Source: a virus (Duplodnaviria > Heunggongvirae > Uroviricota > Caudoviricetes). Taken from it: a stretch of 64,000 bases of DNA. The stretch lies in the IMG/VR virus record IMGVR_UViG_2737471993_000002, one strand, 5' to 3'. Positions 13,354 to 50,560 of this stretch are shown here, piece after piece. The notes under the pieces were generated by a model. It had not been told where the DNA came from, made no database searches, and was given only the letters and a program-made list of their open reading frames with translations. The first letter of the stretch is position 1. The number at the start of each line of letters is the position of its first letter. The position numbers were made by a program, and so were the translations under genes.

Positions 13354-16300
13354 TTGAACATGGAACAGTTCAAGAAGAAAAAGCTACCGCTGTTTATTGC
13401 CGGTGCGGGTGGTAAAAAAAGCAGCAAAAGCTCCAGCCGTACACCGGTTGAAGCCGACGATACCGTAAATTCTCGTGCAATGGCCGCTATCCTCGATCTT
13501 CTTGGGGAAGGGGTAATTGGCGGCTTAGTAAATGGCGCAAGATCTATTTTTATCGACGATCTGCCGATTGTAAATGAAGACGGTTCCTCCAACTTCAGCG
13601 GAATCACATGGGATTTTCGCGACGGTTCGCAAGACCAAACTCCAATGTCTGGCTTTGATTTCGTTGAAACGCCTAAATCCGTCAATATCCAGTTAAAAAA
13701 AACACATTATGTAACGGTTTCAATCGATAACGATGAAGCTGATCGGGTTCGTGTCATCATGAAGTTTCCTTCTTTGCGAAGCATAGATAAAAAAACTGGT
13801 GACACGAACGGTACAACCGTTGAGTACAAGTTCCAGATAGCAAATGGCGACTCAACATTTGTAGATGTGGTCGCGGAAGGTGAAAAAAGCGTTGGCATTA
13901 AGCTAACAGCAAAGAAGACCGGCGTTTATTACCGTAGCTACGAGCTGAAGCTGCCTAAGCCTGGACGCGCATACAAGGTTCGTGTAGTCCGTATTACCGA
14001 TGATAACAGTAGCCAGTATCTCTATAACGATACATGGGTGGATTCAATCGGGGAAATTGTCGATACACCGATGAACTATCCAAACTCTGTTTTGGTTGGA
14101 TTGAAGGTAAACTCTGAGCAATTCGGCAGCACCATGCCATCTCGCTCTTATCTGGTGCGTGGCCTAAAAATTCGAGTACCTTCAAACTATAACGAGTCCA
14201 GTAACACTTACGCTGGGGTATGGGATGGCACTTTTAAGCTGTTGTCTTCTTCGAACCCCGCGTGGATTCTCTTTGATTTGCTGACCAATGCTCGATATGG
14301 CCTTGGTCAGTATGTGTCGGAATCTATGATTGACCTTGGCCAGTTGTACCAGATTGGTCGATATTGTGACGAAGAGGTCGATGATGGCTTTGGTGGCAAA
14401 GAGAAACGCTTTGCAATCAATACGCAGATCACCAGTCGACAGGACGCATACCGACTAATTCAGGATATTGCTGGAGCATTCCGCGGCATGGTGTTTTGGG
14501 CTGGTGGGATGGTTAACATCATGCAGGATAGCCCATCAGATCCGGTAATGATGTTTACCAACTCTAACGTCAAAGATGGATTGTTTACCTATAAAGGTTC
14601 TGCGCGTAAAGATCGCCCATCCGTTGCGCTCGTAACCTACAACAACAAGGAGGACGGTTATAAGCAAAACATCGAGTACGTTGAAGATCAGGACGCAATG
14701 CGCCGTTATGGTGAGCGTAAGACAGAAGTCGTAGCATTTGGCTGTACAAGCCGAGGGCAGGCTCACCGAGTTGGTTTATGGCTTTTATATACCGCCAGAA
14801 TGGAGTCGGATGTAATTACATTTACTGCCGGCTTAGACGCGTCATTTCTGATGCCTGGTGAAACCGTTCTGATTCAGAACAAATATCGCGCAGGCAAACG
14901 TAACTCAGGTCGAATTGTGGCGTTTACCAAAAACAGCGTCACACTCGATGCGCCTGTGTCGTTAGCCAAAGGCGGCTGCTTTATTCGAATACTGAATCAG
15001 GAAGGCAAAATCGTTGAACGCGATGTTCTTGAAACTGGCGAAAATATAACAAAAGTTACGTTTTCAAAAGCCCTGTCTTCGGCTGAAACGCCTGTTTTGA
15101 ACGGCGTCTGGACTATTACAGAACCAGACCTCGAACCTATGCGCGTTCGCATCGTTAACATCGCGCAGGGGGAAACGCCGGGTAGCTTTGACATCACCGC
15201 TGTTGAGAACAATCCGTCTAAATATGAGGCGATCGACAATGGTGCAACGCTTATCCCGCAAAATACGACGGTATTGGACCCGACTTACTCCAAGCCGTCT
15301 AATTTGCAAATCACCGAAGGGACTTATCTCTCAAGCCCTGGCAACCTGTCAGTAAAACTGACTGCAACATGGGAAGGGAAATCTCCAGAGTATTGGATCA
15401 GTTGGCGACGTTCTGATGAAAACAATGTATCGAACTGGCAATCGGCGCGTGTAACCGAAGAGCAATACGAAATCGTTAATGTTGCGGAGAATGGACGCTA
15501 CGACTTCCAGCTGTATGCGGTTTCATTCAACGGTAAAAAAACAGAGATTATCAGTACCGTTTATCAGGTGCTGGGCACAATGACACCGCCAGATGCCCCA
15601 ACGTCATTAACGGCCGTTGGAGACTATCGTAATGTGATACTGAATTGGGTTAATCCAGATTCGGTAGACCTTGATCACATTAATGTTTACGCGTCCCAGA
15701 CCAATAATCTGGATACGGCGAAACTGATCGCAGAGTCTGCAAGCACCACCTTTACACATGCTGGTCTTGGGGATAGCGAAACGTGGTATTACTGGGTTCG
15801 AGCATCGAACAAGCGAGGTATGTTAAGTCCTCCGAACTCAAACTTGGGTACAGAGGCGACAACTCGCGATGTACTGTCGTTCCTGACTGGCAAAATTACA
15901 TCTTCCGAGCTTGGTCAGGCTCTGCTTGAGGACATCAACAGCAAAGCCTCTCAAGAAGCCGTTGACGAGTTAAATGAGCATATCAACCAGAGCGTCGAAT
16001 CTTTGGAGGGGGCGGTAAACGACGTTAAGGAAGATATAGCTGAATTAGATAAGCAGTTCAGCGATAACCTCGCGGATTTTGAAATAAAATTCAACGAGCG
16101 TAGCGATGCTTTGGAGAACGCACAAACCGAGCTTAAAGGTGAGGTTTCGGCAACGATCGACAAGGTCAATGAAGCGTTTGAAAAAATTGATGCTACTGAT
16201 GCTGCAATTGTTGAAATCGAAAATACCGTATCTGAACACGATAAAGCTCTCGCTAATACAGTCGAGGCAATAAAGGCTGCAAGAGATGAAGCGGCGGCTC

Positions 16301-18087
16301 TTATTGCTAAGGAAAGCGAGGCTCGTGTTGAAGGCGATGCTGCAAACGCTAAACAACTGGAAGTGTTGCAGTCAACGGTAGAGGAAAGCTCCGCTGCCGT
16401 TGAAGAAATGAAAAAGACGGTTGCAGAGGTCGATCGTGCAAGTGCAGAACTGACTACGAACATTGAGGCGTTAGCCAAAACAAATATTGACCTGGCTCTT
16501 CGTCAAGATGAAGACCAGCACAAGCAGATGGTCAATAACGCGAAGATCGCAACAACACAGAAAACCTTTGCTGATGATATGTCTGCAATGGCTACGAAGG
16601 TTGAAGAAATTCGCGTAGAAATTGGCGAAGACATTAAGGCCAGTATTCTGGAAGAGTCCACCGCGCGTGCCGATGGCGATGAAGCGTTAGCAAAGCGTGT
16701 CACTCAGCTGCAATCTAAGTTTGAAGGAGATATCAGCGCGGCGATTAGTACAGAACAGGAGGCTCGTACATCTGCCGATGAAGCTTTGACGAAACAAATA
16801 ACTCAGCTTGAGTCGAAAGTAAGCAACGATATTGTCGCAGCCATTAAGGAAGAGCAAGAAGCCCGAGCAACGGAAGATTCGGCTCTGGCAAGCCAGATCA
16901 CCCAACTTCAGGCAAAAGTTGATGATGATATTTCTGCTGCAATACGCAGTGAGCAGGAGGCTCGTGCGAGCGGAGACTCTGCGTTAGCTAAACAAATAAA
17001 CCAGCTTCAAGCAAAGGTTGACGGTGATATATCCGCCGCCATCACTCAGGAGCAGGAGGCCAGAGCAAGTGCTGACGAGGCGCTCTCACGAGAAATTAAC
17101 AGCCTGCGGGCGCAGACCGGAACTGACATTGCCGCAGCCGTTGCTGTAGAGACAAAGGCAAGGACTGATGCCGATAGTGCATTGTCTACCCAGATTACGT
17201 CTCTTACAGCAAAAGCTAATGATCTCGAGGCGTCTCTTGCCAGAGAAACAACGGCTCGTGCTGATGGTGATACCGCTTTAACAAAAGAGGTTTCAAGTTT
17301 AAAAGCACAGACAGCGAAAGATATTAGTGCGGCCGTTGCAGTTGAAACGCAGGCTCGAACTGATGCTGACTCGGCGTTGTCGTCTCAGATCACCAAGCTG
17401 ACCTCTCAATACAAAGAGGATATTAAAGCGGCTGTAGCAACCGAAACGAAAACGCGTACAGAGCAAGATGCTGCATTGGCGACTCAAATCACAAACTTAG
17501 AGTCTCAAACGGCAGCCAACATTTCCGCGGCGGTAACAACTGAAACGACAGCGAGAACGCAGGCAGATAATGCTCTGAGTGGGCGAATCGATACTCTGAA
17601 AGCAGAGGTGGATGGAAATACCGCGACAATTCAACAGCAGGCAACAGCTATTGCTGATACCAACAAAAAAGTGTCAACCGCGTGGACGTTGAAAATGGAA
17701 ACTTCAACGAGCGGAGGGCAGAAGTATGTTGCTGGTATTGCGCTTGGTATCGACACCACTGGCCTTTCTCAGTTTTTGGTGCAGGCTGACAGGTTTGGTT
17801 TGGTCAACTCTGTTAACGGGAAGATCACCACGCCATTTGTTATCGAAAACAGTATCGCCTATATGAATGGTGCGTATATCAAGGATGGCACAATCACCAA
17901 TGCAAAAGTAGGCGATCTGCAATCTACCAATTTTGTTAGCGGTAGATCTGGATGGCGGTTCGGCAAAAATGGAACGCTTGAGATCAACGGTAATAGCGGG
18001 GGTAATGGGCGACTGGTCATAAATGGTCAGCGGATTGACGTTTATGACGATAACAACGTCCTACGAGTAAGAATTGGCCTTCTGTAA
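13354..18087 (+). CDS. central tail fibre / host specificity protein (lambda gpJ-like)
   Basis: 1577-aa protein after the K/I-like genes; a fibronectin-III-like region and about ten ~32-aa coiled-coil repeats in the C-terminal third. Confidence 0.8.
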   Translation: MNMEQFKKKKLPLFIAGAGGKKSSKSSSRTPVEADDTVNSRAMAAILDLLGEGVIGGLVNGARSIFIDDLPIVNEDGSSNFSGITWDFRDGSQDQTPMSGFDFVETPKSVNIQLKKTHYVTVSIDNDEADRVRVIMKFPSLRSIDKKTGDTNGTTVEYKFQIANGDSTFVDVVAEGEKSVGIKLTAKKTGVYYRSYELKLPKPGRAYKVRVVRITDDNSSQYLYNDTWVDSIGEIVDTPMNYPNSVLVGLKVNSEQFGSTMPSRSYLVRGLKIRVPSNYNESSNTYAGVWDGTFKLLSSSNPAWILFDLLTNARYGLGQYVSESMIDLGQLYQIGRYCDEEVDDGFGGKEKRFAINTQITSRQDAYRLIQDIAGAFRGMVFWAGGMVNIMQDSPSDPVMMFTNSNVKDGLFTYKGSARKDRPSVALVTYNNKEDGYKQNIEYVEDQDAMRRYGERKTEVVAFGCTSRGQAHRVGLWLLYTARMESDVITFTAGLDASFLMPGETVLIQNKYRAGKRNSGRIVAFTKNSVTLDAPVSLAKGGCFIRILNQEGKIVERDVLETGENITKVTFSKALSSAETPVLNGVWTITEPDLEPMRVRIVNIAQGETPGSFDITAVENNPSKYEAIDNGATLIPQNTTVLDPTYSKPSNLQITEGTYLSSPGNLSVKLTATWEGKSPEYWISWRRSDENNVSNWQSARVTEEQYEIVNVAENGRYDFQLYAVSFNGKKTEIISTVYQVLGTMTPPDAPTSLTAVGDYRNVILNWVNPDSVDLDHINVYASQTNNLDTAKLIAESASTTFTHAGLGDSETWYYWVRASNKRGMLSPPNSNLGTEATTRDVLSFLTGKITSSELGQALLEDINSKASQEAVDELNEHINQSVESLEGAVNDVKEDIAELDKQFSDNLADFEIKFNERSDALENAQTELKGEVSATIDKVNEAFEKIDATDAAIVEIENTVSEHDKALANTVEAIKAARDEAAALIAKESEARVEGDAANAKQLEVLQSTVEESSAAVEEMKKTVAEVDRASAELTTNIEALAKTNIDLALRQDEDQHKQMVNNAKIATTQKTFADDMSAMATKVEEIRVEIGEDIKASILEESTARADGDEALAKRVTQLQSKFEGDISAAISTEQEARTSADEALTKQITQLESKVSNDIVAAIKEEQEARATEDSALASQITQLQAKVDDDISAAIRSEQEARASGDSALAKQINQLQAKVDGDISAAITQEQEARASADEALSREINSLRAQTGTDIAAAVAVETKARTDADSALSTQITSLTAKANDLEASLARETTARADGDTALTKEVSSLKAQTAKDISAAVAVETQARTDADSALSSQITKLTSQYKEDIKAAVATETKTRTEQDAALATQITNLESQTAANISAAVTTETTARTQADNALSGRIDTLKAEVDGNTATIQQQATAIADTNKKVSTAWTLKMETSTSGGQKYVAGIALGIDTTGLSQFLVQADRFGLVNSVNGKITTPFVIENSIAYMNGAYIKDGTITNAKVGDLQSTNFVSGRSGWRFGKNGTLEINGNSGGNGRLVINGQRIDVYDDNNVLRVRIGLL

Positions 18088-18179: not shown

Positions 18180-21100
18180 ATGTGGTACAGGGAAGGTACT
18201 ATCACATTTACACAGGGCAGCAATACTCTGGTTGGGGCAGGGACAGCCTGGAACGTAACAGCTAATGGTGTGTTGCCGGGGATGATCGTCATTGGCCCCG
18301 ACAATAAGCTGTATGAGATCAAGCGCGTAACCAGTGATACGAACATTGTTCTCTCAGAACCTTATACCGGCGAAACTCAGTCTGAAGTTCCGTGCCGAAT
18401 CATTACGACCTATGAAGGCGACTTAACACAGTTTAGCGCGCGCTTTACAGCACTAATGTCGCGTATGTCGGCTGATTCCAAGTCCATGCGCAGTTGGTTG
18501 ACTGCTCTGGATGAGGTGACAATCGAGCGTGAAGACGGTACAGAAGTGACCGTTAAGCCGCTAATGCAGATCGTCAACGAGCACAACGAAAACGTTGAGT
18601 GGTATAAAAATAACACTGACGCGATTGATGCTGCTGGCGACAAAGCTCGTGAGGCGGCGGCCAGTGCTGCCGCAGCAGCAGAAAGCGCCAATACCGCTGG
18701 AGAAAAAGCCTCTCAAGCGTCTCAAAGTGCATCCGCTGCAGAGTCCTCAAAAAGCGCGGCGGCCACCAGTGCCGGTGCCGCGAAAACGTCTGAAACGAAT
18801 GCTGCAGCGTCACAAAAATCTGCAGCCACTTCTGCATCCACCGCGACCACGAAGGCGTCAGAAGCTGCCACCTCAGCCCGGGATGCGGCGGCCTCAAAAG
18901 AGGCAGCGAAATCATCAGAAACGAGCGCAGCCTCGAGCGCCAGTAATGCCGCTTCCTCGGCAACGGCGGCAGGAAATTCCGCGAAGGCGGCAAAAACGTC
19001 CGAGACGAACGCCAGGTCTTCTGAAACGGCAGCGGGACAGAGCGCCTCGGCTGCGGCAGGCTCAAAAACAGCGGCTGCGTCGTCTGCCAGTGCCGCGTCA
19101 ACAAGTGCCGGGCAGGCCTCAGCCAGTGCCACCGCCGCCGGAAAATCGGCAGAAAGTGCCGCATCGTCTGCTTCAACAGCCACAACGAAGGCTGGCGAAG
19201 CCACTGAACAGGCCAGCGCAGCAGCGAGGTCTGCTTCCGCAGCGAAGACATCCGAAACGAACGCGAAAGCGTCGGAAACCCGTGCAGAATCCTCAAAAAC
19301 GGCAGCCGCATCGTCCGCCAGTTCGGCAGCGTCATCGGCATCATCTGCGTCTGCTTCAAAAGATGAGGCGACCAGACAGGCGTCAGCAGCGAAGGGCAGC
19401 GCCACGACGGCATCCACGAAAGCAACAGAGGCGGCAGGCAGTGCGACGGCAGCATCTCAGAGCAAAACTGCTGCTGAATCCGCTGCGACCCGTGCGGAAG
19501 CTGCTGCTGATCGTGCTGAAGAGATTGCCGGTGCAGTTGCGATGGAAGACGCAAGCCTTACAACTAAAGGTGTTGTGAAACTTAGCAGTGCTGTCGACAG
19601 CACCAGTGAATCGCTGGCCGCAACGCCAAAAGCAGTTAAAGTAGTCAATGACAATGCGAACAGCAGGGTGCCATCTAACCGAAAAATTAACGGGAAAGCA
19701 CTGACTGCGGATATCACATTAACGCCGAAAGATATTGGTACTTTAAATTCAATAACGATGTCTTTCTCTGGCGGGGCCGGGTGGTTCAAACTGGCTACTG
19801 TTACAATGCCACAAGCGAGTTCCATCGTTTACATCGCATTGATTGGTGGCGCTGGTTACAACGTCGGCTCCCCACATCAGGCAGGCATTTCAGAACTGGT
19901 TCTACGAGCAGGCAATGGAAACCCCAAAGGGATTACAGGTGCTTTGTGGAAGCGTACAGCTGTCGGATTAACGAATTTCGCCTGGATCAACACATCCGGC
20001 GATACATATGATATTTACGTTGAGATTGGCAATTATGCGACTCGTGTAAATATCCATTGGGATTGTACTGCAAATGCGACAGTTTCTATTTATACATCGC
20101 CAACATATTCAGCGAGTAAGCCTTCCAGCGTTACCGATGGTGTTGTTTATACGATGTATAGCACACATCAGAAACCGACGCCGTTAGATATTGGAGCACT
20201 GCCAACAACCGGAGGAACAGTTTCAGGTCAGTTGTCTGTTACTGGTGGGATCACCGGAACATTAAATGGTAATGCAAGTACAGCAACGAAATTGCAGACG
20301 GCAAGATCTATCGGTGGAGTTGGTTTCGACGGTTCTGCAAATATCAACCTTCCAGGTGTAAATACTACGGGTAATCAGAACACCACTGGTAATGCTGCAA
20401 CTGCTACAAAACTTCAGACGGCAAGAACTATCGGCGGCGTGAGCTTTGATGGTACTGCGAATATTAATTTGCCAGGTGTTAATACGGCTGGTAATCAGAA
20501 TACAACGGGCAACGCGGCTACTGCTACGAAGTTGCAGACTGCGCGTACTATCAATGGGGTGTCGTTTGACGGCTCGGCAAATATTTCCTTGTCGCCAGCA
20601 AATATAGGTTGCCCGGCATCTCCTACTGGTTGGTTAACTACAGGAAGTAATGGCGGAGCAATAACAACAGCACAGTTAGTGACGTTATTGCAAAATAATG
20701 GAGCATTTAACACAAAGTCATGGATTGCTCGATGTGCGTGGGCCTATGCCAATAGTGCAACCATACCAAATAGTGAAACTGGTTGTGGCGTTATTCCATT
20801 GGCAGGAGCTGTTATAGAGGTATTTAATAACGGTAGTAGCTCAAACAATTATACGATCCGTATAACAACGGCCACAACGACGAGTGTCTCTGGTGCTCTC
20901 ACTAATGCGGAGTTTATCTATGTATTTAATGGCACATATTATTCTCCGGGATGGCGAAGAGTATATAACACGAAAAACAAACCAACAGCCTCTGATGTCG
21001 GTGCATTACCTCTTACCGGTGGTACATTATCTGGAGGTTTGACATCTTCTGGCGAGATCATTTCAAAATATGCAAATGGTTTCCGCATTGCTTACGGTAG

Positions 21101-22208
21101 CTTTGGGTTCTTTATCCGTAATGATGGATCGAACACATATTTCATGCTAACAGCATCAGGAGACACATTAGGTTCATGGAACGGTTTGCGACCAATTACA
21201 ATTAATAATACCAGCGGTGCTGTATCAATTGGTAATGGACTAAATGTGACTGGTGGCGTAAATGGTAGTTTGAACGGTAATGCTTCAACAGCTACGAAGT
21301 TGCAAACAGCGAGAAACATCAATGGTGTTAAGTTTGATGGCTCAGGCGATATCAACATTAATACATTGGTATCTCGTGGCCGAGTTACGGCGTTAAGCGG
21401 CTCTACTCAAGGCACTGCTGGCATTCAAATGTACGAGGCGTACAACAATAGCTACCCGACCACGTATGGCAACGTATTGCACATGAAAGGTGCGAGTGCT
21501 GCTGGTGAGGGCGAGTTGCTTATTGGCTGGAGTGGTACGAGCGGTGCACATGCGCCAGTTTTCATTCGCTCACGAAGAGATACCACAGATGCGGCATGGT
21601 CAGCGTGGGCGCAGGTATATACTGCTAAGGATTCAATCCCTGGTGTGAATACAACCGGTAATCAGAATACTACTGGTAATGCCGCAACAGCCACAAAATT
21701 GCAGACAGCAAGGAAAATTGCTGGTGTGGCGTTTGATGGCTCTGCCGATATTACTTTGACTGCGGCTAACCTTAATGCCTATACGAAAACAGAGGTAACA
21801 AACCTTCTAAGTTCCTATGTGAAGAGCAGTGCTCTTCCAAGTATGACTGTGCGAACTTCCTCTGTTTCAGGTGGGGATATGGGCATGAGTTTGTCCACAT
21901 TCATTAGCCACCTAAAATCAAATGGGGCGTTTAGCAAAAGTTATTGGATTGGCTTTGGCGATGCTATGGGATTCAATGCTGGCAGTATCAACAATATAAC
22001 GGGATTTGGTGCTGTAGAATTAGCAGAATCTATAATCGAAGTTTTTAATCTACCTAACGGTGATTATACAATTCGTTTAACAACGTCACATAAAGCTGAC
22101 TACGGTGGAGTTACAAACGCAATCCTCGTTTATCACTACCGTAGTAATAGAAGTCCGTCAGGTCAATGGCTGAAATTTGCAGGTACTGTTGGGGCAACAA
22201 GTAACTGA
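18180..22208 (+). CDS. tail fibre protein with Ala/Ser-rich repeat region and phage tail-fibre repeats
   Basis: N-terminal third is built of degenerate A/S-rich units (AAKTSETNA.SSE.AA). Downstream are six copies of GN(A)ATATKLQTAR.I.GV.FDGS.(N/D)I.L, the signature of lambdoid side-tail-fibre repeats. Confidence 0.8.
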   Translation: MWYREGTITFTQGSNTLVGAGTAWNVTANGVLPGMIVIGPDNKLYEIKRVTSDTNIVLSEPYTGETQSEVPCRIITTYEGDLTQFSARFTALMSRMSADSKSMRSWLTALDEVTIEREDGTEVTVKPLMQIVNEHNENVEWYKNNTDAIDAAGDKAREAAASAAAAAESANTAGEKASQASQSASAAESSKSAAATSAGAAKTSETNAAASQKSAATSASTATTKASEAATSARDAAASKEAAKSSETSAASSASNAASSATAAGNSAKAAKTSETNARSSETAAGQSASAAAGSKTAAASSASAASTSAGQASASATAAGKSAESAASSASTATTKAGEATEQASAAARSASAAKTSETNAKASETRAESSKTAAASSASSAASSASSASASKDEATRQASAAKGSATTASTKATEAAGSATAASQSKTAAESAATRAEAAADRAEEIAGAVAMEDASLTTKGVVKLSSAVDSTSESLAATPKAVKVVNDNANSRVPSNRKINGKALTADITLTPKDIGTLNSITMSFSGGAGWFKLATVTMPQASSIVYIALIGGAGYNVGSPHQAGISELVLRAGNGNPKGITGALWKRTAVGLTNFAWINTSGDTYDIYVEIGNYATRVNIHWDCTANATVSIYTSPTYSASKPSSVTDGVVYTMYSTHQKPTPLDIGALPTTGGTVSGQLSVTGGITGTLNGNASTATKLQTARSIGGVGFDGSANINLPGVNTTGNQNTTGNAATATKLQTARTIGGVSFDGTANINLPGVNTAGNQNTTGNAATATKLQTARTINGVSFDGSANISLSPANIGCPASPTGWLTTGSNGGAITTAQLVTLLQNNGAFNTKSWIARCAWAYANSATIPNSETGCGVIPLAGAVIEVFNNGSSSNNYTIRITTATTTSVSGALTNAEFIYVFNGTYYSPGWRRVYNTKNKPTASDVGALPLTGGTLSGGLTSSGEIISKYANGFRIAYGSFGFFIRNDGSNTYFMLTASGDTLGSWNGLRPITINNTSGAVSIGNGLNVTGGVNGSLNGNASTATKLQTARNINGVKFDGSGDININTLVSRGRVTALSGSTQGTAGIQMYEAYNNSYPTTYGNVLHMKGASAAGEGELLIGWSGTSGAHAPVFIRSRRDTTDAAWSAWAQVYTAKDSIPGVNTTGNQNTTGNAATATKLQTARKIAGVAFDGSADITLTAANLNAYTKTEVTNLLSSYVKSSALPSMTVRTSSVSGGDMGMSLSTFISHLKSNGAFSKSYWIGFGDAMGFNAGSINNITGFGAVELAESIIEVFNLPNGDYTIRLTTSHKADYGGVTNAILVYHYRSNRSPSGQWLKFAGTVGATSN

Positions 22209-22398
22209 TTTAGACATTATTTATATGGCTGTGAGGTTTAAAATGCGATCTCACAGCCGCAATCATAGGGATATATTAGTGAGTTACTAGATACGAATTT
22301 GAACAGCCGTTAAACGGTATATGCATAGGTAGGTAAGTATATACCTATAATTGAAAGGAGAAGTGTGATATAAATCCGCCATCCCGATTTGACTTTTC

Positions 22399-22734
22399 AT
22401 GGAGGAAAACATGTCGAACGAGATGGCGGGCGTTACAACAGAGCAAGTTGAGCGTATTGCCGCGATCGTTGCTCGGGAGGTTGTTGGCAAATTAGGTAAA
22501 GAGCTACGTGAAGAAATTGGCCAGGAGGTCAATGATCAGCTGAAAACCTACTTTGGTGATATGACCCCGGCGCAACATAGTATTCAACACTCCAATCTGG
22601 ACAAACTCCTTAACCGGTTAGATTCCATCTCAAGTGGGTTCTTTGGCGGCATTGTTTCTAAAATAACGTCGTTCATTATTACCGCACTGCTTTTGGGGTT
22701 AGCCGCGTATGGCGTAAAAAGTGGACTGCAATAA
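22399..22734 (+). CDS. tail-anchored membrane protein, possible holin
   Basis: 111 aa with a single C-terminal TM helix (ITSFIITALLLGLAAYGV); first gene of an operon after the fibre gene. Holin call is positional only. Confidence 0.35.
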   Translation: MEENMSNEMAGVTTEQVERIAAIVAREVVGKLGKELREEIGQEVNDQLKTYFGDMTPAQHSIQHSNLDKLLNRLDSISSGFFGGIVSKITSFIITALLLGLAAYGVKSGLQ

Positions 22735-23440
22735 CAGGAGATCAAGGATGAAGACTCCGAGAGGCATTCGTAATAATAACCCCGGTAATCTTGATAAAGG
22801 ATCACCGTGGCAAGGTCTGGTTGCGAATCCAGACGAACCGCGCTTTTGCACGTTTAAAGACCCTGTTTGGGGGATTCGTGCGCTGGCGGTGACTCTAATT
22901 ACCTACCACGACAAACGTCGCGCAAAAGACGGCTCAAGTATCGATACCATTCGTGAAGTTATTGAACGTTGGGCACCGCCGAATGAAAACAACACTGACG
23001 CCTACATTAATGAGGTGTCTAAAGCCGTTGGTGTAACCGCAGACATGATCATCGATCTGCATGATTACGACATCCTTCGACCTTTGGTTGAGGCAATCAT
23101 TCGCCACGAGAATGGTCGAGGTCCACTAAAAACGCTGAACACCTGGTATGCGGCAGAAGTTATTGAGGAAGGTCTGCGTCGAGCTGGCGTCGTTAAGCCG
23201 GTGAAAACCGTGAAGGCTGTTCCTGTAACTAAAGAAACCGCTGGCGCAACTGTTACAGCAGGTATTGGTCTGGCGCAGCTGGCCGATGTTATGCCGCAGG
23301 TTTCCGCTGCTATGGATAAAGCACAAGGTCATATCTCTAGCGGGGATACAGTACGCATCATCTTCGGTATTGCCACTATTGTTGTGGCTGGATTTATCGC
23401 CTGGTCGCAGGTAAGAAGACACCAGAAAGGGATGGTCTAA
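22721..23440 (+). CDS. putative cell-wall hydrolase (endolysin-like) with C-terminal membrane anchor
   Basis: 239 aa with GIRNNNPGNL near the N-terminus and a C-terminal TM helix. Placed in a lysis-like cassette by position; enzymatic class not established. Confidence 0.35.
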   Translation: MDCNNRRSRMKTPRGIRNNNPGNLDKGSPWQGLVANPDEPRFCTFKDPVWGIRALAVTLITYHDKRRAKDGSSIDTIREVIERWAPPNENNTDAYINEVSKAVGVTADMIIDLHDYDILRPLVEAIIRHENGRGPLKTLNTWYAAEVIEEGLRRAGVVKPVKTVKAVPVTKETAGATVTAGIGLAQLADVMPQVSAAMDKAQGHISSGDTVRIIFGIATIVVAGFIAWSQVRRHQKGMV

Positions 23441-23441
23441 T

Positions 23442-23693
23442 ATGCTAGGCAGCCTGATGACAAAGCTAAAAGTTGCTTTGATTACGCTGGCTGCCGTTCT
23501 TTTCGTTCTTGTCGGCGCTTACACGATGGGCGGAAATGCGGCGCGACGAGCAATGGAAGAGAAGGCAAAACAGGAAGACAGAAAACGACTTCAAAGCACA
23601 GTGGATGTCAAAAATGAAACGGTTAATGAAGTGCGGCAAAAAGATGCCTCTGGTGTTCATCGCGAGCTGCTTGATAAATGGGTGCGTGATTAA
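23442..23693 (+). CDS. putative i-spanin (Rz-like)
   Basis: 83 aa, N-terminal TM helix followed by a charged, helical periplasmic region. Confidence 0.4.
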   Translation: MLGSLMTKLKVALITLAAVLFVLVGAYTMGGNAARRAMEEKAKQEDRKRLQSTVDVKNETVNEVRQKDASGVHRELLDKWVRD

Positions 23694-24065: not shown

Positions 24066-24449
24066 ATGCTGAACGAGAAACGTTCTATACAAACTATTCG
24101 CGATTGCACGAGTATTATCGAGACTCATGTGCTGAATCAGCACAAGCTTGAAGTACGTAAGCTCAATAATGACGCTATTGAACCGGAAGACTCACGCTTC
24201 ATCGTTACCTTCAAAGACGATGTTGAGCGCGCTGGTGCAAGCGTGAAGCCATTAGCTGAAGCAATTTACCTGAATGGTCGTGTTCGTTTTGTAGTCAAGC
24301 CAGCTAAACAGTACCCTGAGCTGTCTCGTTTTATCGAGGCTTTTTCGGAGGTTATTGAACATTCTATTCGCCGCTTCTTACGCAATCATGGTAGCATTGT
24401 CAGCACGGTTAAGGCTGATGATTCTGCTACAAAATGGCTCCTACACTAG
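24066..24449 (+). CDS. hypothetical protein
   Basis: 127-aa ORF after a ~220-nt intergenic region; no recognisable motif. Confidence 0.45.
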   Translation: MLNEKRSIQTIRDCTSIIETHVLNQHKLEVRKLNNDAIEPEDSRFIVTFKDDVERAGASVKPLAEAIYLNGRVRFVVKPAKQYPELSRFIEAFSEVIEHSIRRFLRNHGSIVSTVKADDSATKWLLH

Positions 24450-25186
24450 ATAGCGCATATTCAAAAGATCTAAGCGAGTTTCCTCATAAAGGGGAGACTC
24501 GTGTTGTTCGTTTTGGCTTTCTTATCAATGAAGCCTCCCTCTATAAAATCTCAGAAATTGAAATCATTGAACCAGAAGATGACATTTGCCTGTATGTCTC
24601 TATGGAACGTGTAGGTGCGCGCAACCAAGGCGACCTGAGCGAATTCATCTTAGATCGAGCGGATGAAGATGCCCCTGAAGAAGAGATTATCAAAGAGGTG
24701 CTCCAGTCCGGGCTTCTGGACGAAAACAAAAATACGATCGCTGGTAGGATAGCTCTGCGTGAATATAGTTTTGTTGAAGACGGTAATGAGATCGAATGTT
24801 ACCAGGTAGCTGGTGTCGAAACTGTCAGAGAGCGTCGTCAGCGAGGATTGTGTCACCGTACCTATCTCTTTCTTCTTCATTGGTATGAGCATTTAGTCTG
24901 CGACGATACACAAACCATTCCTGGTGCTAAGATCTGGGCAGGGCCTCTCATGCGAACCGGCGATGTGCGTATATACAATGCCAAAACAGAAACGTTCGAA
25001 GATGTGTTAGGTGAGTACGGGATGGGGAAAGAAACCGGATTTTTGCCGTGGAACAGAGGATTGTTGCTTGATGCAGAGTTAAGCTCTTGGCTCCCAAACA
25101 AAGTGCAAGTTAACGTTCAGAAATTTATCGTACTTATCATCTCCCGCAAAACAAGAACTCCAGTAGGTTTATACCTAAAAGATTAA
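24434..25186 (+). CDS. hypothetical protein
   Basis: 250-aa ORF overlapping the previous stop; followed by an intrinsic terminator. Confidence 0.5.
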   Translation: MAPTLDSAYSKDLSEFPHKGETRVVRFGFLINEASLYKISEIEIIEPEDDICLYVSMERVGARNQGDLSEFILDRADEDAPEEEIIKEVLQSGLLDENKNTIAGRIALREYSFVEDGNEIECYQVAGVETVRERRQRGLCHRTYLFLLHWYEHLVCDDTQTIPGAKIWAGPLMRTGDVRIYNAKTETFEDVLGEYGMGKETGFLPWNRGLLLDAELSSWLPNKVQVNVQKFIVLIISRKTRTPVGLYLKD

Positions 25187-26432: not shown

Positions 26433-28136
26433 TTGATACTAATGGAATCGATAGAATCATTTCTAAAAAATTTTCTAGTTTCAGATCATCGGGTTGCCGT
26501 CATAAAAGGAGATTGGGGCGTTGGTAAAACTCATTATTGGAATAGTTTTTATACTAAGCATTCTGAAGGATTAGATTTTAATGCATATTCGTATGTTTCT
26601 TTGTTTGGGGTTAACTCTATTGGTGATATTAAAAAAGCTCTTTATCATTGTGCCACACCAATTAATGAAAAGAAATATAAAGAACTAATTTTATCTGAAA
26701 CGGATCGAACTATGATTCGTTATAGAAATGGGTTTTTGGGATGGTTGAAATACAACTCCTTGTCAAAATTTTTAATACATTTCGGAAAGAACGATTTTTT
26801 TGGGTTCAAAACAGATAACCTGCTGTCATCTCTTGAGTATAAATTTGTTAATAATTATTTGGTTTGTATTGATGATGTTGAAAGAAAAGGTAATTCGCTA
26901 GAAGTTAAAGAAATTATGGGGGTAATTGATGAATTGGCAAGAAGAAAAGGCTGCAAAGTTGTTCTAATTTTAAATGAAGATAATTTACATGATGAAACTG
27001 CAAAAAAACAGTTTTTAGAGTACAGAGAAAAAGTAATTGATGTCGAAATAAAATATGATCCTACGCCTGAGAAGAACTTACGTAAAGTTTTTTATGAAAC
27101 TGATTCTGATTTTCTTTTGTTAAAAGTCTTAGCAAATGACTTAGGCATTAAAAATATCCGTATATTAAATAAAATAAAAACATCTCTGGTTAATCTTAGG
27201 AATGAGCTAAGCTTGGCAGAGGATAAGGTTAGAGAAAGTTTTATCAATAGATTGGTTCTGTTTTCAGTGGTTTACTATTCTGGTGTTCCAGGTGTTGATT
27301 ATGCCTTGTTTAAAGAATCAATTAAAAACATACATGTATTTGATTACATGTTAGATGATAAAAAGGATGATTCTGTATATTCATTTATTAATAGTCTTGA
27401 TATTATTTATGAACGAGCGGAAATTGCTTTCGATGATGACATAGATTTTTATCTCAAGAATGGTTATCTTTCTACTGAAAGCAATATTCGAGGTATAATA
27501 GAAGAAAAAAATAAACAATATAAAGAACACAAGGCTTTATGTGAGGTTAACAATGTTTGGGATATTTTTAGTGACTCATTCAAGGACAATGAATCTGAGT
27601 TTATTTCTAAGATAAAATGTGTAATTAACGACAATCTTTCACACATACCTGTTGCTCACTTCATAGGCTTGATTGATATCTTAAATAGATTGGAGATTGA
27701 TTGTGATAGTTATATAGAGGCATATGCAGATGCCTTTGTTAGCCAAGATGATGCTTATACTGCTTTTCGGAATTTGTATGTAGAGATATTTGGTAACGAA
27801 AAGTTAGGTCTGCTAATTCAAAAAAAATTGATGGATAAGAAGCCTGAAGAGACTAATTTAGAGAATGTTTTATACAAAATAATTGAAGGCAAATTTAATC
27901 ATAGTGACATAGCATATCTTAACAGTTTCTCTGAAGATGATTATTTAAAGTGGATATTATCCCGCAATCAGGATGCTTTGGATTTAGTGAGAAAGGGGTT
28001 GCTCAGATTCAAAAGTATGCAAGAACTAACAGAAGAACAGCAAAAAATCACGAATAAAGCAATAGGTGCATTAACGAAACTGGCCTCTAGATCAAGTCTT
28101 AACAAACTACGTGTGAGCAGATTGCTTAATAATTAA
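26433..28136 (+). CDS. KAP-family P-loop NTPase (AT-rich cargo gene)
   Basis: Walker A GDWGVGKTH and Walker B LVCIDDVER fit the KAP family. The gene is visibly more AT-rich than flanking backbone genes. Confidence 0.6.
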   Translation: MILMESIESFLKNFLVSDHRVAVIKGDWGVGKTHYWNSFYTKHSEGLDFNAYSYVSLFGVNSIGDIKKALYHCATPINEKKYKELILSETDRTMIRYRNGFLGWLKYNSLSKFLIHFGKNDFFGFKTDNLLSSLEYKFVNNYLVCIDDVERKGNSLEVKEIMGVIDELARRKGCKVVLILNEDNLHDETAKKQFLEYREKVIDVEIKYDPTPEKNLRKVFYETDSDFLLLKVLANDLGIKNIRILNKIKTSLVNLRNELSLAEDKVRESFINRLVLFSVVYYSGVPGVDYALFKESIKNIHVFDYMLDDKKDDSVYSFINSLDIIYERAEIAFDDDIDFYLKNGYLSTESNIRGIIEEKNKQYKEHKALCEVNNVWDIFSDSFKDNESEFISKIKCVINDNLSHIPVAHFIGLIDILNRLEIDCDSYIEAYADAFVSQDDAYTAFRNLYVEIFGNEKLGLLIQKKLMDKKPEETNLENVLYKIIEGKFNHSDIAYLNSFSEDDYLKWILSRNQDALDLVRKGLLRFKSMQELTEEQQKITNKAIGALTKLASRSSLNKLRVSRLLNN

Positions 28137-30520: not shown

Positions 30521-31702
30521 ATGAGCCTTTATGTTATATCAACATTTAGGTTGGTCACAATATTGCCTGTTAAAAGTGGAATTATCGTGAGCGAGCTGAA
30601 AGAGCTAATTGCCGAATTAGATTTTGAACAATGGTTGGATACTGAAGGTATCGTTTATCGACGTGGAGGCGTGAGTGCTCGCGGTCGTGAAGTGAATATC
30701 AAAGAGTGTCCGGTATGCGGCAGCTCCAACTGGAAGGTATATTTCAATCTGACCAGTGGCGTCGGTAAATGCTTCGCTGGTGATCATCCCGAAGAGATTC
30801 AGTTCAATAAGCTGGTCTTCCTCAAGCACTACAGCGGCAAATCACGACGACAGTTCGAGGAATATGTGCAGAACGCCCTTCTTTCCCAGGGGTGGGCACC
30901 AAAGAAAGAAGAGCTAGTGCTTGCAAGCACAGTCGAGTTAGAGGGGCCAGTTGCACTCCCTCGTCATTACGAGCTTCCTATAGATGGCCGTCTTCCAGAC
31001 TATCTGGTTGAACGAAACATATCACCTGAAATGGCAAAGTATTTTGACCTACGATACTGCGTCGAAGGCAAGCACGCTTATGTAGATCCGTATACAGATC
31101 AGGTAAAAGGGCAGATATTCGATATGCGAATACTGATACCGGTTTACGATCTGGATGGGGTAATGAAGACATTTCAGGGACGAGACATTACCGGTACAGC
31201 AGAACGCCGCTACCTCTTTCCTATGCAGCTTCCAGCTTCAGGTAAGTTTCTCTACAACGGCCATAATGCAGTCGGCAAACAGACTGTAGTTGTCTGTGAG
31301 GGGGCGTTCGATGTTATGGGGGTTAAACGAGCTATTTTTGACGAAGAAACATTACGTGATTACGTGGAACCAATAGGAACGTTCGGGATGCATCTATCTG
31401 GTAACACCACTCAGGATGCAGAAGATCAGTTAGGCGCGTTCCTGACGCTCAAGGCGCGTGGGTTACGTAATGTGATCATGATGTGGGATAGTGAAAAGCA
31501 AGCTATACGCAACACTATGGCCGCAGCCAGGCGACTGAGCAGTATTGGTCTTAATGTGAAAATTGCATGTTTGGGCGAGGAAGGACTCGACCCCGGCGAT
31601 GCGACCCCGGGGCAGATTATCAAAGCCTACTATTGCGCAAAACCTTACTCACGACAGCTTGAACTCTTAAGCAAGGTGAAAGGCATTGCAGCACTAGTTT
31701 GA
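30521..31702 (+). CDS. DNA primase (zinc-binding plus TOPRIM)
   Basis: CPVCGS...C zinc-ribbon-like motif and acidic TOPRIM-like segment (VVCEGAFDV...MWDSE). Start placed at the ATG following the shared AGAAAAACAC leader; the track ORF starts at 30449. Confidence 0.6.
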   Translation: MSLYVISTFRLVTILPVKSGIIVSELKELIAELDFEQWLDTEGIVYRRGGVSARGREVNIKECPVCGSSNWKVYFNLTSGVGKCFAGDHPEEIQFNKLVFLKHYSGKSRRQFEEYVQNALLSQGWAPKKEELVLASTVELEGPVALPRHYELPIDGRLPDYLVERNISPEMAKYFDLRYCVEGKHAYVDPYTDQVKGQIFDMRILIPVYDLDGVMKTFQGRDITGTAERRYLFPMQLPASGKFLYNGHNAVGKQTVVVCEGAFDVMGVKRAIFDEETLRDYVEPIGTFGMHLSGNTTQDAEDQLGAFLTLKARGLRNVIMMWDSEKQAIRNTMAAARRLSSIGLNVKIACLGEEGLDPGDATPGQIIKAYYCAKPYSRQLELLSKVKGIAALV

Positions 31703-32839
31703 ACCAGTATTAGTCACATACACATTGACCGAAAATGATTTAACTTCTGTATTGAAGTTGTCAGTCATTACCGCGAGGTAGGCATTCTTGGTATCTCTGA
31801 ATTGCTTCAGGATGATTTGAACGTTATCGGTGCAAACAAACGAGGTAGCCAGATTGCCTCCTTTCTCTGAAAAATCCTTCAGGAAGGTGCAGTCAACTTT
31901 GCCATCATTAGCGGTGAAGGTAGCATCATCACCCTGCCAGGTAAATGTAGCGTTAACGCCCTTATCAATGGATTTAGCAATAAGTCGCTGGGTGGCGGAT
32001 TTTGTTTTGGCTTTGGAAGCCGGCGCTCGATATTTGCCGCTTTCTTTCAGTTCTGCAATGTAATCGCAGCCTCTTTTTTCTCCTTTATCGCAAGCAGTCT
32101 GATAAAGGTCGGCTGCTTTTTTATAGTCCTTTTTTACACCTTCCCCATTCTCATACATAATGCCAAGATTGGTTATGGCGTCGGCGTTTCCAAGTTCCGC
32201 TGCCTTTTTATACCACTTAACTGCTTCTGCATCATTGCGTTTAACGCCTAACCCATCATCGTATAGTATTCCTAATCCTATCATAGCTTCTGAACTGCCT
32301 TGGTCTGCCGCCTTTTTGTAATAAGTAAAAGCCTTTTTATAATTCTTTTTAACGCCTTTACCATATTGGTAATACGCCCCAAGAACTGAAGTTGCTTTAA
32401 CATACCCGGCATCAGAGGCTAGTTTGAAGTATTTAATGGCGAGTGCATGATCTACTTTACCAAGCATCCCCTTTTGATAAATAGCACCAAGATTGTTGTA
32501 GGCTCTACCTTCACGAGCATCCCCCGCAAGTTTGTAGTACTCAACAGCTTTATTTAGGTCTTTATCTACACCCTCGCCAAATGTGTACATAACTCCAAGT
32601 GCATAATATGCTACTTTATCTCCCTTTTCTGCAGCTAGATCAATCCACTTCTTGGCCTCAACTACATCCTTATCAAAACCATTGACACCATCAAAATAAT
32701 TTGTACCTAACTCACTTTGTGCTGCGGTATCCCCTGCGGTAGCGGCTTCTATCAGCGTTTGTTTATTGTCTGCGTTAACGAATCCAGAGTTAAAAAGCAA
32801 AGTTAATGCCAGCAACGATGAAGATTTTATGTATTTCAT
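31694..32839 (-). CDS. secreted Sel1-repeat protein
   Basis: Signal peptide MKYIKSSSLLALTLLFNSGFVNA, about seven Sel1-like repeats, and a ~110-aa C-terminal domain. Convergent with, and slightly overlapping, the primase 3' end. Confidence 0.65.
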   Translation of the reverse strand: MKYIKSSSLLALTLLFNSGFVNADNKQTLIEAATAGDTAAQSELGTNYFDGVNGFDKDVVEAKKWIDLAAEKGDKVAYYALGVMYTFGEGVDKDLNKAVEYYKLAGDAREGRAYNNLGAIYQKGMLGKVDHALAIKYFKLASDAGYVKATSVLGAYYQYGKGVKKNYKKAFTYYKKAADQGSSEAMIGLGILYDDGLGVKRNDAEAVKWYKKAAELGNADAITNLGIMYENGEGVKKDYKKAADLYQTACDKGEKRGCDYIAELKESGKYRAPASKAKTKSATQRLIAKSIDKGVNATFTWQGDDATFTANDGKVDCTFLKDFSEKGGNLATSFVCTDNVQIILKQFRDTKNAYLAVMTDNFNTEVKSFSVNVYVTNTGSN

Positions 32840-33071
32840 GTTTTTTTTCTGTTGATATAGGATGAACAGTTTAGACGCGGCAAGCGTCAAGTGTGCGAAA
32901 AAGGGTACTTAAATTTAGTTAATATGTCAGCTTTGTTGATTTAGTTTATGGTCGGTAAAGTTACTGGGAAACTAATAACCATAAGAAATAGTACGCCATT
33001 TAATTATTGTGGCACTGCTCGTGTTTTGATTAACTAATACCTGCGATAAATATAAATAAAGGGAAGCCAAC

Positions 33072-49742: not shown

Positions 49743-50015
49743 AAAGAATTATGGCGCTTGTTGAGGAAGTCACTCCTCTTACGCACTTTGTTTTGCCATG
49801 CCGGCAGTTAGCTTCTGCCTTTGACTATTCATGCGGCAACCCCGCATTTCGCCACAATGGGCAATTCACTTTTATGGAATAAACTGGCCGTTGTGTCGAT
49901 TTAATTAGCATGGCCTTACCATGCTAATTTATTCAACTTGTACAATCCTACAAATCTATCCACTCAGGCTTACACCGTCTTCGTTATTGTAGAAATGAGG
50001 ATCATCAGCGTTGAA

Positions 50016-50231
50016 TCAGCTTAGAGCAACGACATTTGCTGCTGCTGGGCCTTTAGCCCCATTCTCGATAGAGAATTCGACCTGCTGGCCTTCTTCCAAA
50101 GTGCGGAAATTATTACTCTGAATTGCCGAAAAATGTACAAAAACATCTTTACTGCCATCAGCAGGAGAAATAAAGCCAAAGCCTTTATCAGAGTTAAACC
50201 ATTTTACTAAACCAGTCATTTTATTAGACAT
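50016..50231 (-). CDS. cold-shock protein (CspA family)
   Basis: [21 protein letters not shown]...VFVHFSAI contains the RNP1/RNP2-type cold-shock motifs; the track ORF is N-terminally extended. Confidence 0.8.
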
Positions 50232-50560
50232 AGATATTACCTTCTTAATTTTGTGAGCCACATAGTGCGGCGAGAATTTGATCTGTATAGATTGGGACTT
50301 ACTTAGGCACTTAAGGAGGAGACTCACGAAGAAGGGAAATCAGAAGATAACACTGAACTGAGACTGCTTTACTAAAACTGCTTACATAAGGTCTGTCTTG
50401 CAAACCAACGATGCTATTAACGCATACCCCTTCTTTTCATGCAACCTTTATTTTTCAAAGATAACTAATTTTTGTCACCATTGGTTTAGTAAACGTTAAC
50501 GAACCAGACGATGCCAGACACCTTTACAGAGAACAGATGCCCGCCAATTGGCGGGCATCA

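Follow-up and report, generated by a model that had tools for sequence, protein, structure and literature searches.

Modular architecture of a predicted side tail fibre from an SSU5-like Escherichia coli phage-plasmid and its variation among relatives

Introduction

A long gene that joins a low-complexity, Ala/Ser-rich region to a series of repeated and divergent segments raises the question of what it encodes, how it was assembled and whether it decides which hosts a phage can infect. Such a gene is located at positions 18180-22208 of a 64,000-nucleotide (nt) stretch of tailed-phage DNA (IMG/VR virus record IMGVR_UViG_2737471993_000002), which is called the window throughout. The original prediction described this gene as a tail fibre composed of an Ala/Ser-rich repetitive region and six lambdoid tail-fibre repeats, the latter separated by divergent receptor-binding-like segments, and suggested that it is a recombination-prone host-range determinant. 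Our analysis leads us to propose, with high confidence, that the gene encodes the side fibre of an SSU5-like phage-plasmid, in which a coiled-coil shaft would be followed by a string of beads connected by linker units that we designate R, with specificity residing in the distal part and with evolution occurring by exchange of whole modules.

Results

Identity of the gene and its phage-plasmid context

The gene is one continuous open reading frame (ORF), 18180-22208 (+) including the stop codon, that specifies a protein of 1342 amino acids (aa). Its assignment as a side tail-fibre coding sequence draws on the ORF list, on PHROG matches, on its relatives and on the excess of substitutions at codon position 3. 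PHROG tail-fibre families match the protein, with phrog_3299 scoring 2509.9 bits over aa 1-1220, and a phmmer search of PDB retrieved the structures of Mu S' (8ju3, E=1.1e-36) and Mu S (5yvq, E=1.2e-34). Pfam matches are to PF21446 and PF03406, and a search of NCBIfam with the whole protein returned no match. A Cyrano gene annotated as "tail fiber protein, P1 S homolog" (CYRAN_21) is 96.7% identical in DNA over 92% of the window fibre gene, and the fibre gene of plasmid pLF82 is 96.6% identical over the same span, both records being 108,379 bp in length. Together with matches to T4 gp34 structures and a location between a J-like gene and lysis genes, both described below, these results bear out the designation as a tail fibre.

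Copies that cover at least 80% of the gene are present on 87 plasmids. The 60 copies listed reside on plasmids of ~100-127 kb, and 28 of these 60 are full-length at 90.5-98.4% DNA identity. The full-length relatives that were sampled are non-mobilizable E. coli plasmids of ~110 kb (rep_cluster_488 in three, IncFIB in one), and the host on record for relatives is Escherichia in every case. Salmonella phage SSU5 matches the first 515 nt of the gene at 78%. The window belongs to the well-known SSU5-like phage-plasmids because its fibre is near-identical to those of Cyrano/pLF82 and of the ~110-kb plasmids and because SSU5 itself matches at the 5' end. A full-length match to the phrog_3299 profile, an SSU5-type N-terminal anchor and the gene order J - fibre - lysis, by which fibres of SSU5-like phage-plasmids can be recognized, are all present. 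On these similarities, we identify ORF 18180-22208 as the side tail-fibre gene of an SSU5-like phage-plasmid of E. coli.

An N-terminal anchor, an Ala/Ser heptad shaft and a single PF03406 motif

The architecture of the fibre reads N - H43 - PF03406 - D1 - R-R-R - S - G - R - K - R - C. It begins with an N-terminal anchor (aa 1-150; 18180-18629, +) that, based on its conservation and on PHROG N-terminal tail-fibre matches, is presumed to mediate attachment to the tail tip. All E. coli phage-plasmid relatives share this anchor at 99-100% identity and the SSU5 fibre shares it at 82%, and it has no Pfam match. It also differs from the N-terminal StfN collar of the Ur-lambda side fibre Stf (orf-401 plus orf-314), with no homology detected by BLASTP with orf-401. 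The two best alignments of orf-401 start at residues 149 and 117 and the furthest-reaching one at residue 85, short of the collar, which comprises Stf residues 1-91 (PMC12617516).

The anchor is followed by a predicted coiled-coil shaft (aa 151-450; 18630-19529, +) of 43 unbroken heptads with the form xAxxSAx, recognized by its periodicity and by homology to lambda orf-401. Ala, Ser and Thr together constitute 70-78% of each 50-aa segment of this block. Ala occupies heptad position 2 in 43 of 43 repeats, Ser occupies position 5 in 33 and Ala position 6 in 30, with no break in register, and Fourier analysis gives a peak at 3.5 residues with a power of 89.9 versus a maximum of 41.8 among 200 shuffled sequences. 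The Ala/Ser-rich block that had been placed at about 18650-19520 is therefore real, with measured limits of 18630-19529 and a regularity far beyond what the term "repetitive" conveys.

A single PF03406 (Phage_fiber_2) motif is present at aa 459-499 (19554-19676, +; 68 bits versus a cutoff of 22, E=5.2e-19), where it reads TKGVVKLSS..LAATPKAVK and aligns to Mu S residues 105-156 in a phmmer search of PDB. The motif sits where lambda has its coiled-coil-to-hinge junction. The two best BLASTP alignments of the heptads and PF03406 with lambda orf-401, the N-terminal part of Stf, show 54-57% amino-acid identity, and lambda stf DNA is 86% identical to this part of the gene over 379 nt. A cryo-EM/ET study of Ur-lambda assigned Stf residues 102-393 to a trimeric proximal coiled coil that is followed by a hinge (PMC12617516). 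The two fibres are thus alike in possessing an Ala/Ser heptad coiled coil that leads into PF03406 and the hinge, as well as in a presumed side-fibre role beside J, and by analogy the window fibre is probably also a trimer, made of identical chains. The truly lambdoid part of the fibre is the shaft together with PF03406. Lambda orf-314 gave only spurious low-complexity matches to the window fibre (E ~4e-4, 19-25% identity), and the gp37-like His-rich distal tip and the Tfa chaperone of lambda are found in neither the fibre nor the window.

In the structure that we propose, the anchor would fix the fibre to the tail tip beside the J-like central fibre, and the 300-residue heptad coiled coil would form a rigid shaft resembling the proximal coiled coil of Ur-lambda Stf. 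Allowing 0.15 nm per residue, this shaft would measure ~45 nm.

Number and distribution of R units

The ATKLQTAR...FDGS motif was located at the coordinates originally given (about 20240-20580, 21270-21330 and 21640-21740), and the number of full copies is five rather than the six that had been claimed. Regular-expression matching, a direct-repeat finder and a 64-sequence hidden Markov model (HMM) agree on three tandem copies plus two single ones, and the pattern KL.T.R..F[DN]G has exactly five matches in all six frames of the 64-kb window. Additionally, the HMM detects two half-unit remnants, one at aa 509-518 and the other an orphan PGVNTTGNQNTT linker at aa 1152-1164. A sixth copy is ruled out, as the sensitive HMM and the six-frame expression give five full copies and two half-units. 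R1-R3 (20265-20606, +) are tandem 40-aa linker repeats of the form GNAATATKLQTAR..FDGSANINLPGVNTxGNQNT, defined by TRF (period of 120 nt, 2.2-2.5 copies, score of 305) and by HMM (domain E of 1e-22 to 2e-24). R4 extends from aa 1032 (21273-21386, +; HMM E=2.8e-21), and HMM domains define a segment at 21633-21788 (+) that contains the orphan linker followed by R5, the latter from aa 1165 (21672-21788).

These repeats are not the lambdoid tail-fibre repeats that they were first taken for. A Pfam tail-fibre-repeat profile, PF03406, does match the fibre, once and at aa 459-499, and not at the ATKLQTAR copies; the R1-R3 segment gave no Pfam match, PF03406 and PF03335 included, even at E<=10. The possibility that R is a T4 gp34 repeat or PF03335 was also considered and rejected, no such match being found. 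The ATKLQTAR motif occurs in no frame of lambda Stf, which lacks R units, and some lambdoid phages such as phi458 do carry them.

The R unit is widespread. A tblastn search found it in 506 phage records, which include T-even gp37 genes and fibre genes of P2-like phages and of Pseudomonas and Acinetobacter myophages, and a HMMER search with the distal 303 aa of the fibre matched 2,917 representative clusters, in which a single protein had as many as 17 matched stretches. By HMM, as many as 13 R-unit domains were detected in one protein. Among the 636 near-full-length R units that we counted in 144 retrieved proteins, starts are most often 40 aa apart (243 cases) and next most often 133 aa apart, the latter corresponding to a recurrent R-K-R trio. 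Wherever a K, S-G or D1 module is present in the listed proteins, it has R units on its flanks. The 64-sequence profile also gives weak but significant matches (E ~1e-4) to a solved phage tail fibre (8vbx, gp47) and to the stalk at the C-terminus of the phage L protein Dec. We propose from this distribution that R is a generic and very widespread linker between globular fibre modules, one for which Pfam has no model.

Globular modules of the distal fibre

Beyond PF03406 and the hinge, the fibre would become beta-structured, with beads strung in the order D1, R-R-R, S, G, R, K, R and C and with the 40-aa R units joining the globular modules. The original prediction had called the segments between the repeats receptor-binding-like. 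Several can now be recognized as defined modules (a Mu S'-like domain, a gp34-trimerization-like domain and a K knob) whose role in receptor binding is putative.

The first module, D1 (aa 505-690; 19692-20249, +), is matched by PHROG tail-fibre families and recurs in other fibres, sometimes twice, and has neither a Pfam match nor a PDB match by sequence search. The S module (aa 809-935; 20604-20984, +) resembles an internal domain of Mu S' (phmmer to 8ju3 residues 186-334, domain E=1.4e-27). It is followed by the Gp34_trimer-like G module (Pfam limits aa 907-1008; 20898-21203, +; PF21446, 102 bits versus a cutoff of 27), which also matches Mu S (5yvq residues 244-340) and T4 gp34 (4uxe, 5nxh) with E of 1e-21 to 1e-26. 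The K cassette (aa 1061-1150; 21360-21629, +) is an exchangeable knob-like module delimited by allele comparison, with no Pfam match and no PDB match by sequence search.

The terminal tip domain, the C module (aa 1233-1342; 21876-22205, +), is paralogous to S, from which it has diverged (BLASTP of C with S, E=3e-13), and also matches 8ju3 (residues 215-304, phmmer E=2e-8). A single-sequence AlphaFold2 prediction of aa 1040-1342 reached a pLDDT of only 33, whereas a model of the C tip alone that was built on an alignment reached 79.6; a separate homologue search with the C tip had returned only three close matches, too few for an alignment. The sole Foldseek match of this model in PDB at E<=0.001 is 8ju3 (TM 0.77), and in BFVD it matches fibre domains from a few Shewanella and crAss-like viruses. 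Across at least six upstream contexts, C is invariably the last module of the protein and is followed by 0-3 residues. The last 189 aa of the window fibre have no Pfam match and so contain no Peptidase_S74-type chaperone domain, the protein ending with C. This is unlike the fibres of relatives CMS-2020a and SSU5, which end in ..LNYNGVIGMLVEAVKEL...

The fibre consequently shares modules with several well-known systems without sharing their overall design. With Mu S (gp49, 5YVQ), Mu S' (gp52, 8JU3) and P1 S, it has in common the PF03406 region, the gp34-trimer-like domain and the S'-type domain, which is present twice in the window fibre, as S and as C. It differs from Mu and P1 S fibres at the N-terminus. 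Mu S' also continues for ~150 residues past the S'-type domain to its tip, whereas the window fibre ends with that domain. No invertible segment or U/U' chaperone gene of the Mu/P1 kind lies beside the window gene, although an invertase was not specifically searched for. The likeness to the T4 gp34/gp37 fibre comprises the PF21446 domain and the R-like units in T-even gp37 genes of many phages. These are single modules only, with gp34 chains, including the full-length 1289-aa chain of 9x3r, aligning to aa 946-1033 and nowhere else; T4 stands apart in its overall architecture, in having a fibre built of several proteins and in its chaperones gp57A/gp38.

Exchange of modules among relatives

In E. 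coli phage-plasmid relatives the fibre varies within a constant background, with identities of 99.0-99.6% for J, 98-100% for the endolysin and 94-100% for the holin. Fibres of Cyrano/pLF82 and of other SSU5-like E. coli phage-plasmids in phrog_3299 resemble the window fibre across the J-holin locus and in the series N-anchor, 43 heptads, PF03406, D1, R1-R3, S, G, R4, R5 and C. The Cyrano/pLF82 fibres differ from the window fibre only in the K cassette (aa ~1061-1150), for which they carry an allele, K2, that is 19% identical in amino acids between flanks that are 94-100% identical. DNA homology is lost at gene nt 3182, the end of R4, in both Cyrano and pF16EC0541-2, and in Cyrano it resumes at nt 3427, a short way upstream of the R5 linker. 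R4 contains the left junction of the K swap. The window K allele resembles that of SSU5 (71% nt identity).

Other relatives have exchanged larger parts of the gene. In a common variant represented by pS2-S1K81-2, 99.5% identity extends to nt 3640 and is followed by a different end, giving a 1385-aa fibre with two additional small ORFs downstream of it. In CMS-2020a, divergence sets in after R2 (nt 2291), and the fibre carries K2, a second D1 and an S74-type chaperone end; near R4 its homology ends at nt 3177 by blastn or nt 3131 by megablast. Such S74-chaperone-type ends, together with accessory ORFs, take the place of the C tip in other phage-plasmid relatives as well, and in two variants (C and D) the replaced tip is only 24-25% identical to the window C. 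The lambdoid phage phi458 has gene nt 525-2287 in common with the window at 95% identity, ending at R2, and many lambdoid Stf genes have nt ~525-1478 in common, with DNA homology being lost in PF03406. The same modules are found behind P1-S-type, lambda-Stf-type and P2-like N-termini.

Repeat number varies as well, with R copy numbers of 3, 2 or 1 and heptad numbers of 43, 28 or 23 across relatives. For example, pF16EC0541-2 has two tandem R units instead of three, exactly 120 nt fewer, and pCMZE123_2 has 28 heptads versus 43, a difference of 105 aa or 15 heptads. The SSU5 fibre has 23 heptads and either one R motif (regular expression) or two (profile search).

Comparison of C-terminal regions across these relatives, all with Escherichia as the host on record, found that the distal domain is not conserved. 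The mosaic pattern is directly observed, and the comparison strongly supports a fibre that is modular and prone to exchange. We propose that the gene evolves by replacement of whole modules and by in-register gain and loss of repeats, that viable junctions would for the most part fall at PF03406 or within or next to R units, and that the modules would be drawn from a pool common to lambda-, P1/Mu-, P2- and T-even-type fibres. The sampled junctions at gene nt 2287/2291 (end of R2), 3131-3182 (R4), 3427 (before the R5 linker) and ~1478 (PF03406) are of this kind.

Several observations weigh against a special role for R in this process. The frequent junction at nt 3640 (aa 1214) is ~20 residues past R5 and outside any R unit. 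Only ~6 independent junctions were sampled and, because the ends of BLAST alignments are biased toward conserved motifs, a concentration of junctions at R units is tentative in statistical terms. Furthermore, R copies within the window gene are 70-89% identical as protein and 65-74% identical as DNA, with exact matches of no more than 14 nt, and are therefore poor RecA substrates, so junctions may lie where they do because chimeras able to fold are selected, and not because R is a hot-spot by mechanism. Taken to its conclusion, this would mean that illegitimate or short-homology exchange occurs anywhere in the gene and that chimeras joined at inter-domain linkers are those that fold and survive. 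We give this explanation slightly less than even credence. It is favoured by the low DNA identity among R copies and by the nt-3640 junction, as well as by the right-hand junction of the K swap, which falls at the end of the K domain and not in the R5 core. It accounts less well for the finding that equivalent R units can be much closer between genomes than copies are inside one gene, R2 and R3 being 97-100% identical in protein to those of most phage-plasmid relatives, which would provide long homology for crossovers between genomes, or for losses of exactly one 120-nt unit and of exactly 15 heptads, which are a signature of repeat-mediated unequal exchange. Of the suggestion that the gene is a recombination-prone host-range determinant, the modularity and the exchange are upheld by comparison of relatives, simple RecA hot-spots are disfavoured, and the host-range effect has the standing of an inference, as considered next.

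Adsorption specificity, the J-like protein and chaperones

The distal modules of the proposed fibre, namely the terminal C module and possibly the K knob, would make a first and reversible contact with a receptor, either lipopolysaccharide or an outer-membrane protein. This contact would set the specificity and the rate of adsorption, and the near-invariant J protein would then make the committed contact. We infer the length of the fibre, the identity of its receptor-binding module and its effect on host range from architecture and homology. The putative nature of every connection between a module and a receptor or the host range counts against the proposal, as does the possibility that the fibre only speeds adsorption and does not determine host range. 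Lambda Stf and T5 side fibres are non-essential, and they raise adsorption 10-30 fold while leaving titre unchanged (PMC12617516).

It is possible, though on balance we doubt it, that the window fibre is likewise an accessory accelerator of adsorption, with J deciding which cells are infected and with module swaps tuning kinetics on surface glycans or porins. In addition to the dispensability of the lambda and T5 fibres, this explanation is favoured by the presence, directly upstream of the fibre gene, of a complete gene for a J-like central fibre or tip protein (13354-18087, +; 1577 aa) with Pfam domains FNIII-A_GpJ, Phage-tail_3 and Phage_Tail_Tip (PF24801, PF13550 and PF09327, the last being the tip domain), and by the 99% conservation of J while fibres vary. 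However, strong and repeated module replacement beside flanks that are 99% identical implies diversifying selection on the fibre itself, and in SSU5 the fibre gene is followed by a gene annotated as a "putative receptor-recognising phage tail fiber adhesin". An accelerator is also largely compatible with our proposal of distal specificity, from which it differs in degree.

The J-like protein has a long helical insertion at aa ~1126-1390, ahead of the PF09327 domain, that contains a 33-aa tandem repeat with the consensus DI[SVAK]AA[IV]..EQEAR..AL..QI..L..K and with starts at aa 1126, 1159, 1192, 1225, 1258, 1323 and 1356. The J protein with this repeat is 99% conserved among relatives.

Mu- and lambda-type fibres need a Tfa/U chaperone. 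A tblastn search of the 64-kb window with eight chaperone- or adhesin-type proteins (lambda Tfa, SSU5_022/023, the accessory ORFs of pS2-S1K81-2 and CMS-2020a, and phi458 Orf48/49) gave no match. A fibre with no chaperone gene detected in the window is unusual for the Mu/lambda type and is a further point against our proposal; the fibre may be chaperone-independent. A more elaborate version of this idea holds that a shaft-type Mu-S' domain was co-opted to become C, a distal tip that folds by itself with no need of a chaperone, that specificity is split with a laterally exposed and swappable K, and that R is a universal adaptor moving modules between lambda-, P1/Mu-, P2-, T-even- and SSU5-type fibres. 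We consider this combination improbable and offer it as speculation.

Relatives with different fibre ends carry extra genes between the fibre and the holin that have no homologue in the window. These include a Gly-rich 279-aa protein downstream of the fibre in CMS-2020a (L003 8741-9580), SSU5_022 (L010 8283-8819; 178 aa, annotated as "receptor-recognising tail fiber adhesin") and a pair of 84 and 188 aa (L004 7719-8581).

Overlapping ORFs inside the heptad block

As first predicted, the Ala/Ser-rich block gives rise to long spurious ORFs in other frames and on the opposite strand. These are a +2-frame ORF at 18595-19578 (+; 327 aa, R/P/Q-rich) and antisense ORFs at 18574-19554 (-; 326 aa) and 18722-19417 (-; 231 aa, A/D/V/F-rich), all of which are confined to the heptad block. 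We compared codon substitutions in this block between the window and the diverged relative pG749_2 in all frames and found that they fit the fibre frame. Codon position 3 of that frame contains 147 of the 222 substitutions, and its ratio of 107 synonymous to 60 non-synonymous changes is the best of any frame. The +2 frame has 6 synonymous versus 162 non-synonymous changes, the +3 frame has almost exclusively non-synonymous change, and two antisense frames, those with a wobble position other than that of the sense strand, have 7-10 versus 157-161. The remaining antisense frame has 85 versus 78, a semi-conservation that is automatic because its wobble position is shared with the sense strand. 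From their composition, the Ala-rich 231-aa ORF probably lies in this wobble-sharing frame and the 326-aa ORF in one of the other two antisense frames. We judge all of these extra ORFs to be by-products of composition.

The idea that 18722-19417 or another of the long overlapping ORFs is a real gene is scarcely credible and was rejected. In its favour are the 231 open codons, the ORFs annotated at the equivalent place in CP057251, CP088392, phi458 (Orf45) and lambda (orf206b) and the 85/78 ratio. Against it, a wobble-sharing frame would be expected to encode an Ala-rich antisense ORF and to look conserved automatically, the ratio is still worse than 107/60 in the sense frame, the ORF is restricted to the low-complexity block with a product that is the complement of GCN/TCN-rich codons, its length must shift with the heptad number (28 or 23 in relatives), and accepting it means cutting short a fibre ORF despite 100% conservation of the first 150 aa.

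Such ORFs have nevertheless entered public records. In CP057251 (L005 3543-4226) and CP088392 (L008 843-1526) an antisense "hypothetical protein" is annotated and the fibre is cut back to start at Met455, whereas phi458 has antisense Orf45 in its heptad region (L002 3965-4702) and lambda carries orf206b inside stf (L007 1248-1868), which is a further likeness between Ur-lambda Stf and the window gene. These antisense calls and fibre truncations are a systematic annotation artefact of a low-complexity coding block.

Other features of the window

A gap of 190 nt separates the fibre stop codon from the holin, endolysin and Rz/Rz1 genes directly downstream (22399-23693, +), which are named as in the record of Cyrano, a near-identical phage. 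Just past the fibre stop, the spacer at 22209-22398 contains a perfect 9-bp inverted repeat, GGCTGTGAG ... CTCACAGCC, that was read by eye and lacks a T-run; a consensus terminator scan did not report it. Promoter and terminator scans of the fibre gene region gave sites no more numerous than in shuffled sequence.

Four tRNA genes are clustered at 37840-38397 (+), with the specificities Asn(gtt), Tyr(gta), Thr(tgt) and Ser(tga). Compared with other sampled window genes, the fibre contains 2-3 fold more Ser, Thr and Asn, and it prefers the codons ACA, AAT and TAT; a match of the tRNA cluster to late-gene codons is only suggestive. At 49991-50409 (-) there is a full-length match to the cspA thermoregulator 5'UTR (Rfam RF01766, 185.7 bits versus a gathering score of 78), which implies a cold-shock-type gene on the phage-plasmid.

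A strongly AT-rich ORF at 26433-28136 (+; 567 aa, GC 0.30-0.375) has a KAP-family P-loop NTPase domain and matches the PADLOC candidate defence system PDC-S49 (E=1.8e-22), and it is probably variable defence cargo because Cyrano has a 267-aa hypothetical gene at that place. A second AT-rich ORF, at 38593-39927 (-; 444 aa, GC ~0.33), adjoins the tRNA cluster and has a sub-threshold match to putAbiC, a putative abortive-infection domain (21.4 bits versus a cutoff of 22), with no PADLOC match. The region at 24066-25186 (+), after the lysis cassette, contains two ORFs of 127 and 250 aa with no Pfam or PADLOC match at a position where Cyrano has a KacT-type toxin and an antitoxin on the other strand, and it looks like another variable cargo slot. 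A Sel1-repeat protein (31694-32890, -; 398 aa, PF08238 E=1.5e-53) is encoded on the strand opposite to its neighbours in a region of lower GC.

Discussion

The identity of this protein as a fibre, its architecture and its homologies are, like its mosaic pattern, matters of direct observation, and all of them fit into a well-developed field. The concept of mosaic tail fibres has been known since the 1990s, and evolution by exchange at conserved motifs was reportedly described by Haggard-Ljungquist (1992), Sandmeier (1994) and Tetart (1998). The systems of that decade are like this one in that short conserved motifs flank variable domains and that modules are common to unrelated phage types. There is no conceptual difference between them, and the window gene is a clean natural example of the same principle in phage-plasmids. 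The gene itself is already known, is of a known kind and is already annotated as a tail fibre in relatives. With gene, annotation and principle all established, the fibre offers little for discovery.

Its value lies elsewhere. The heptad block causes recurrent errors in public records, in the form of antisense "hypothetical proteins" and truncated fibres. The R unit is common and yet unmatched in Pfam-A, and a family model would improve the annotation of fibres. Finally, near-isogenic phage-plasmids that differ by K or K2, by a C tip or a chaperone-type tip, by three or two R units and by 43 or 28 heptads constitute natural templates for module swaps, and this series provides ready designs for engineering the specificity or the length of a fibre.

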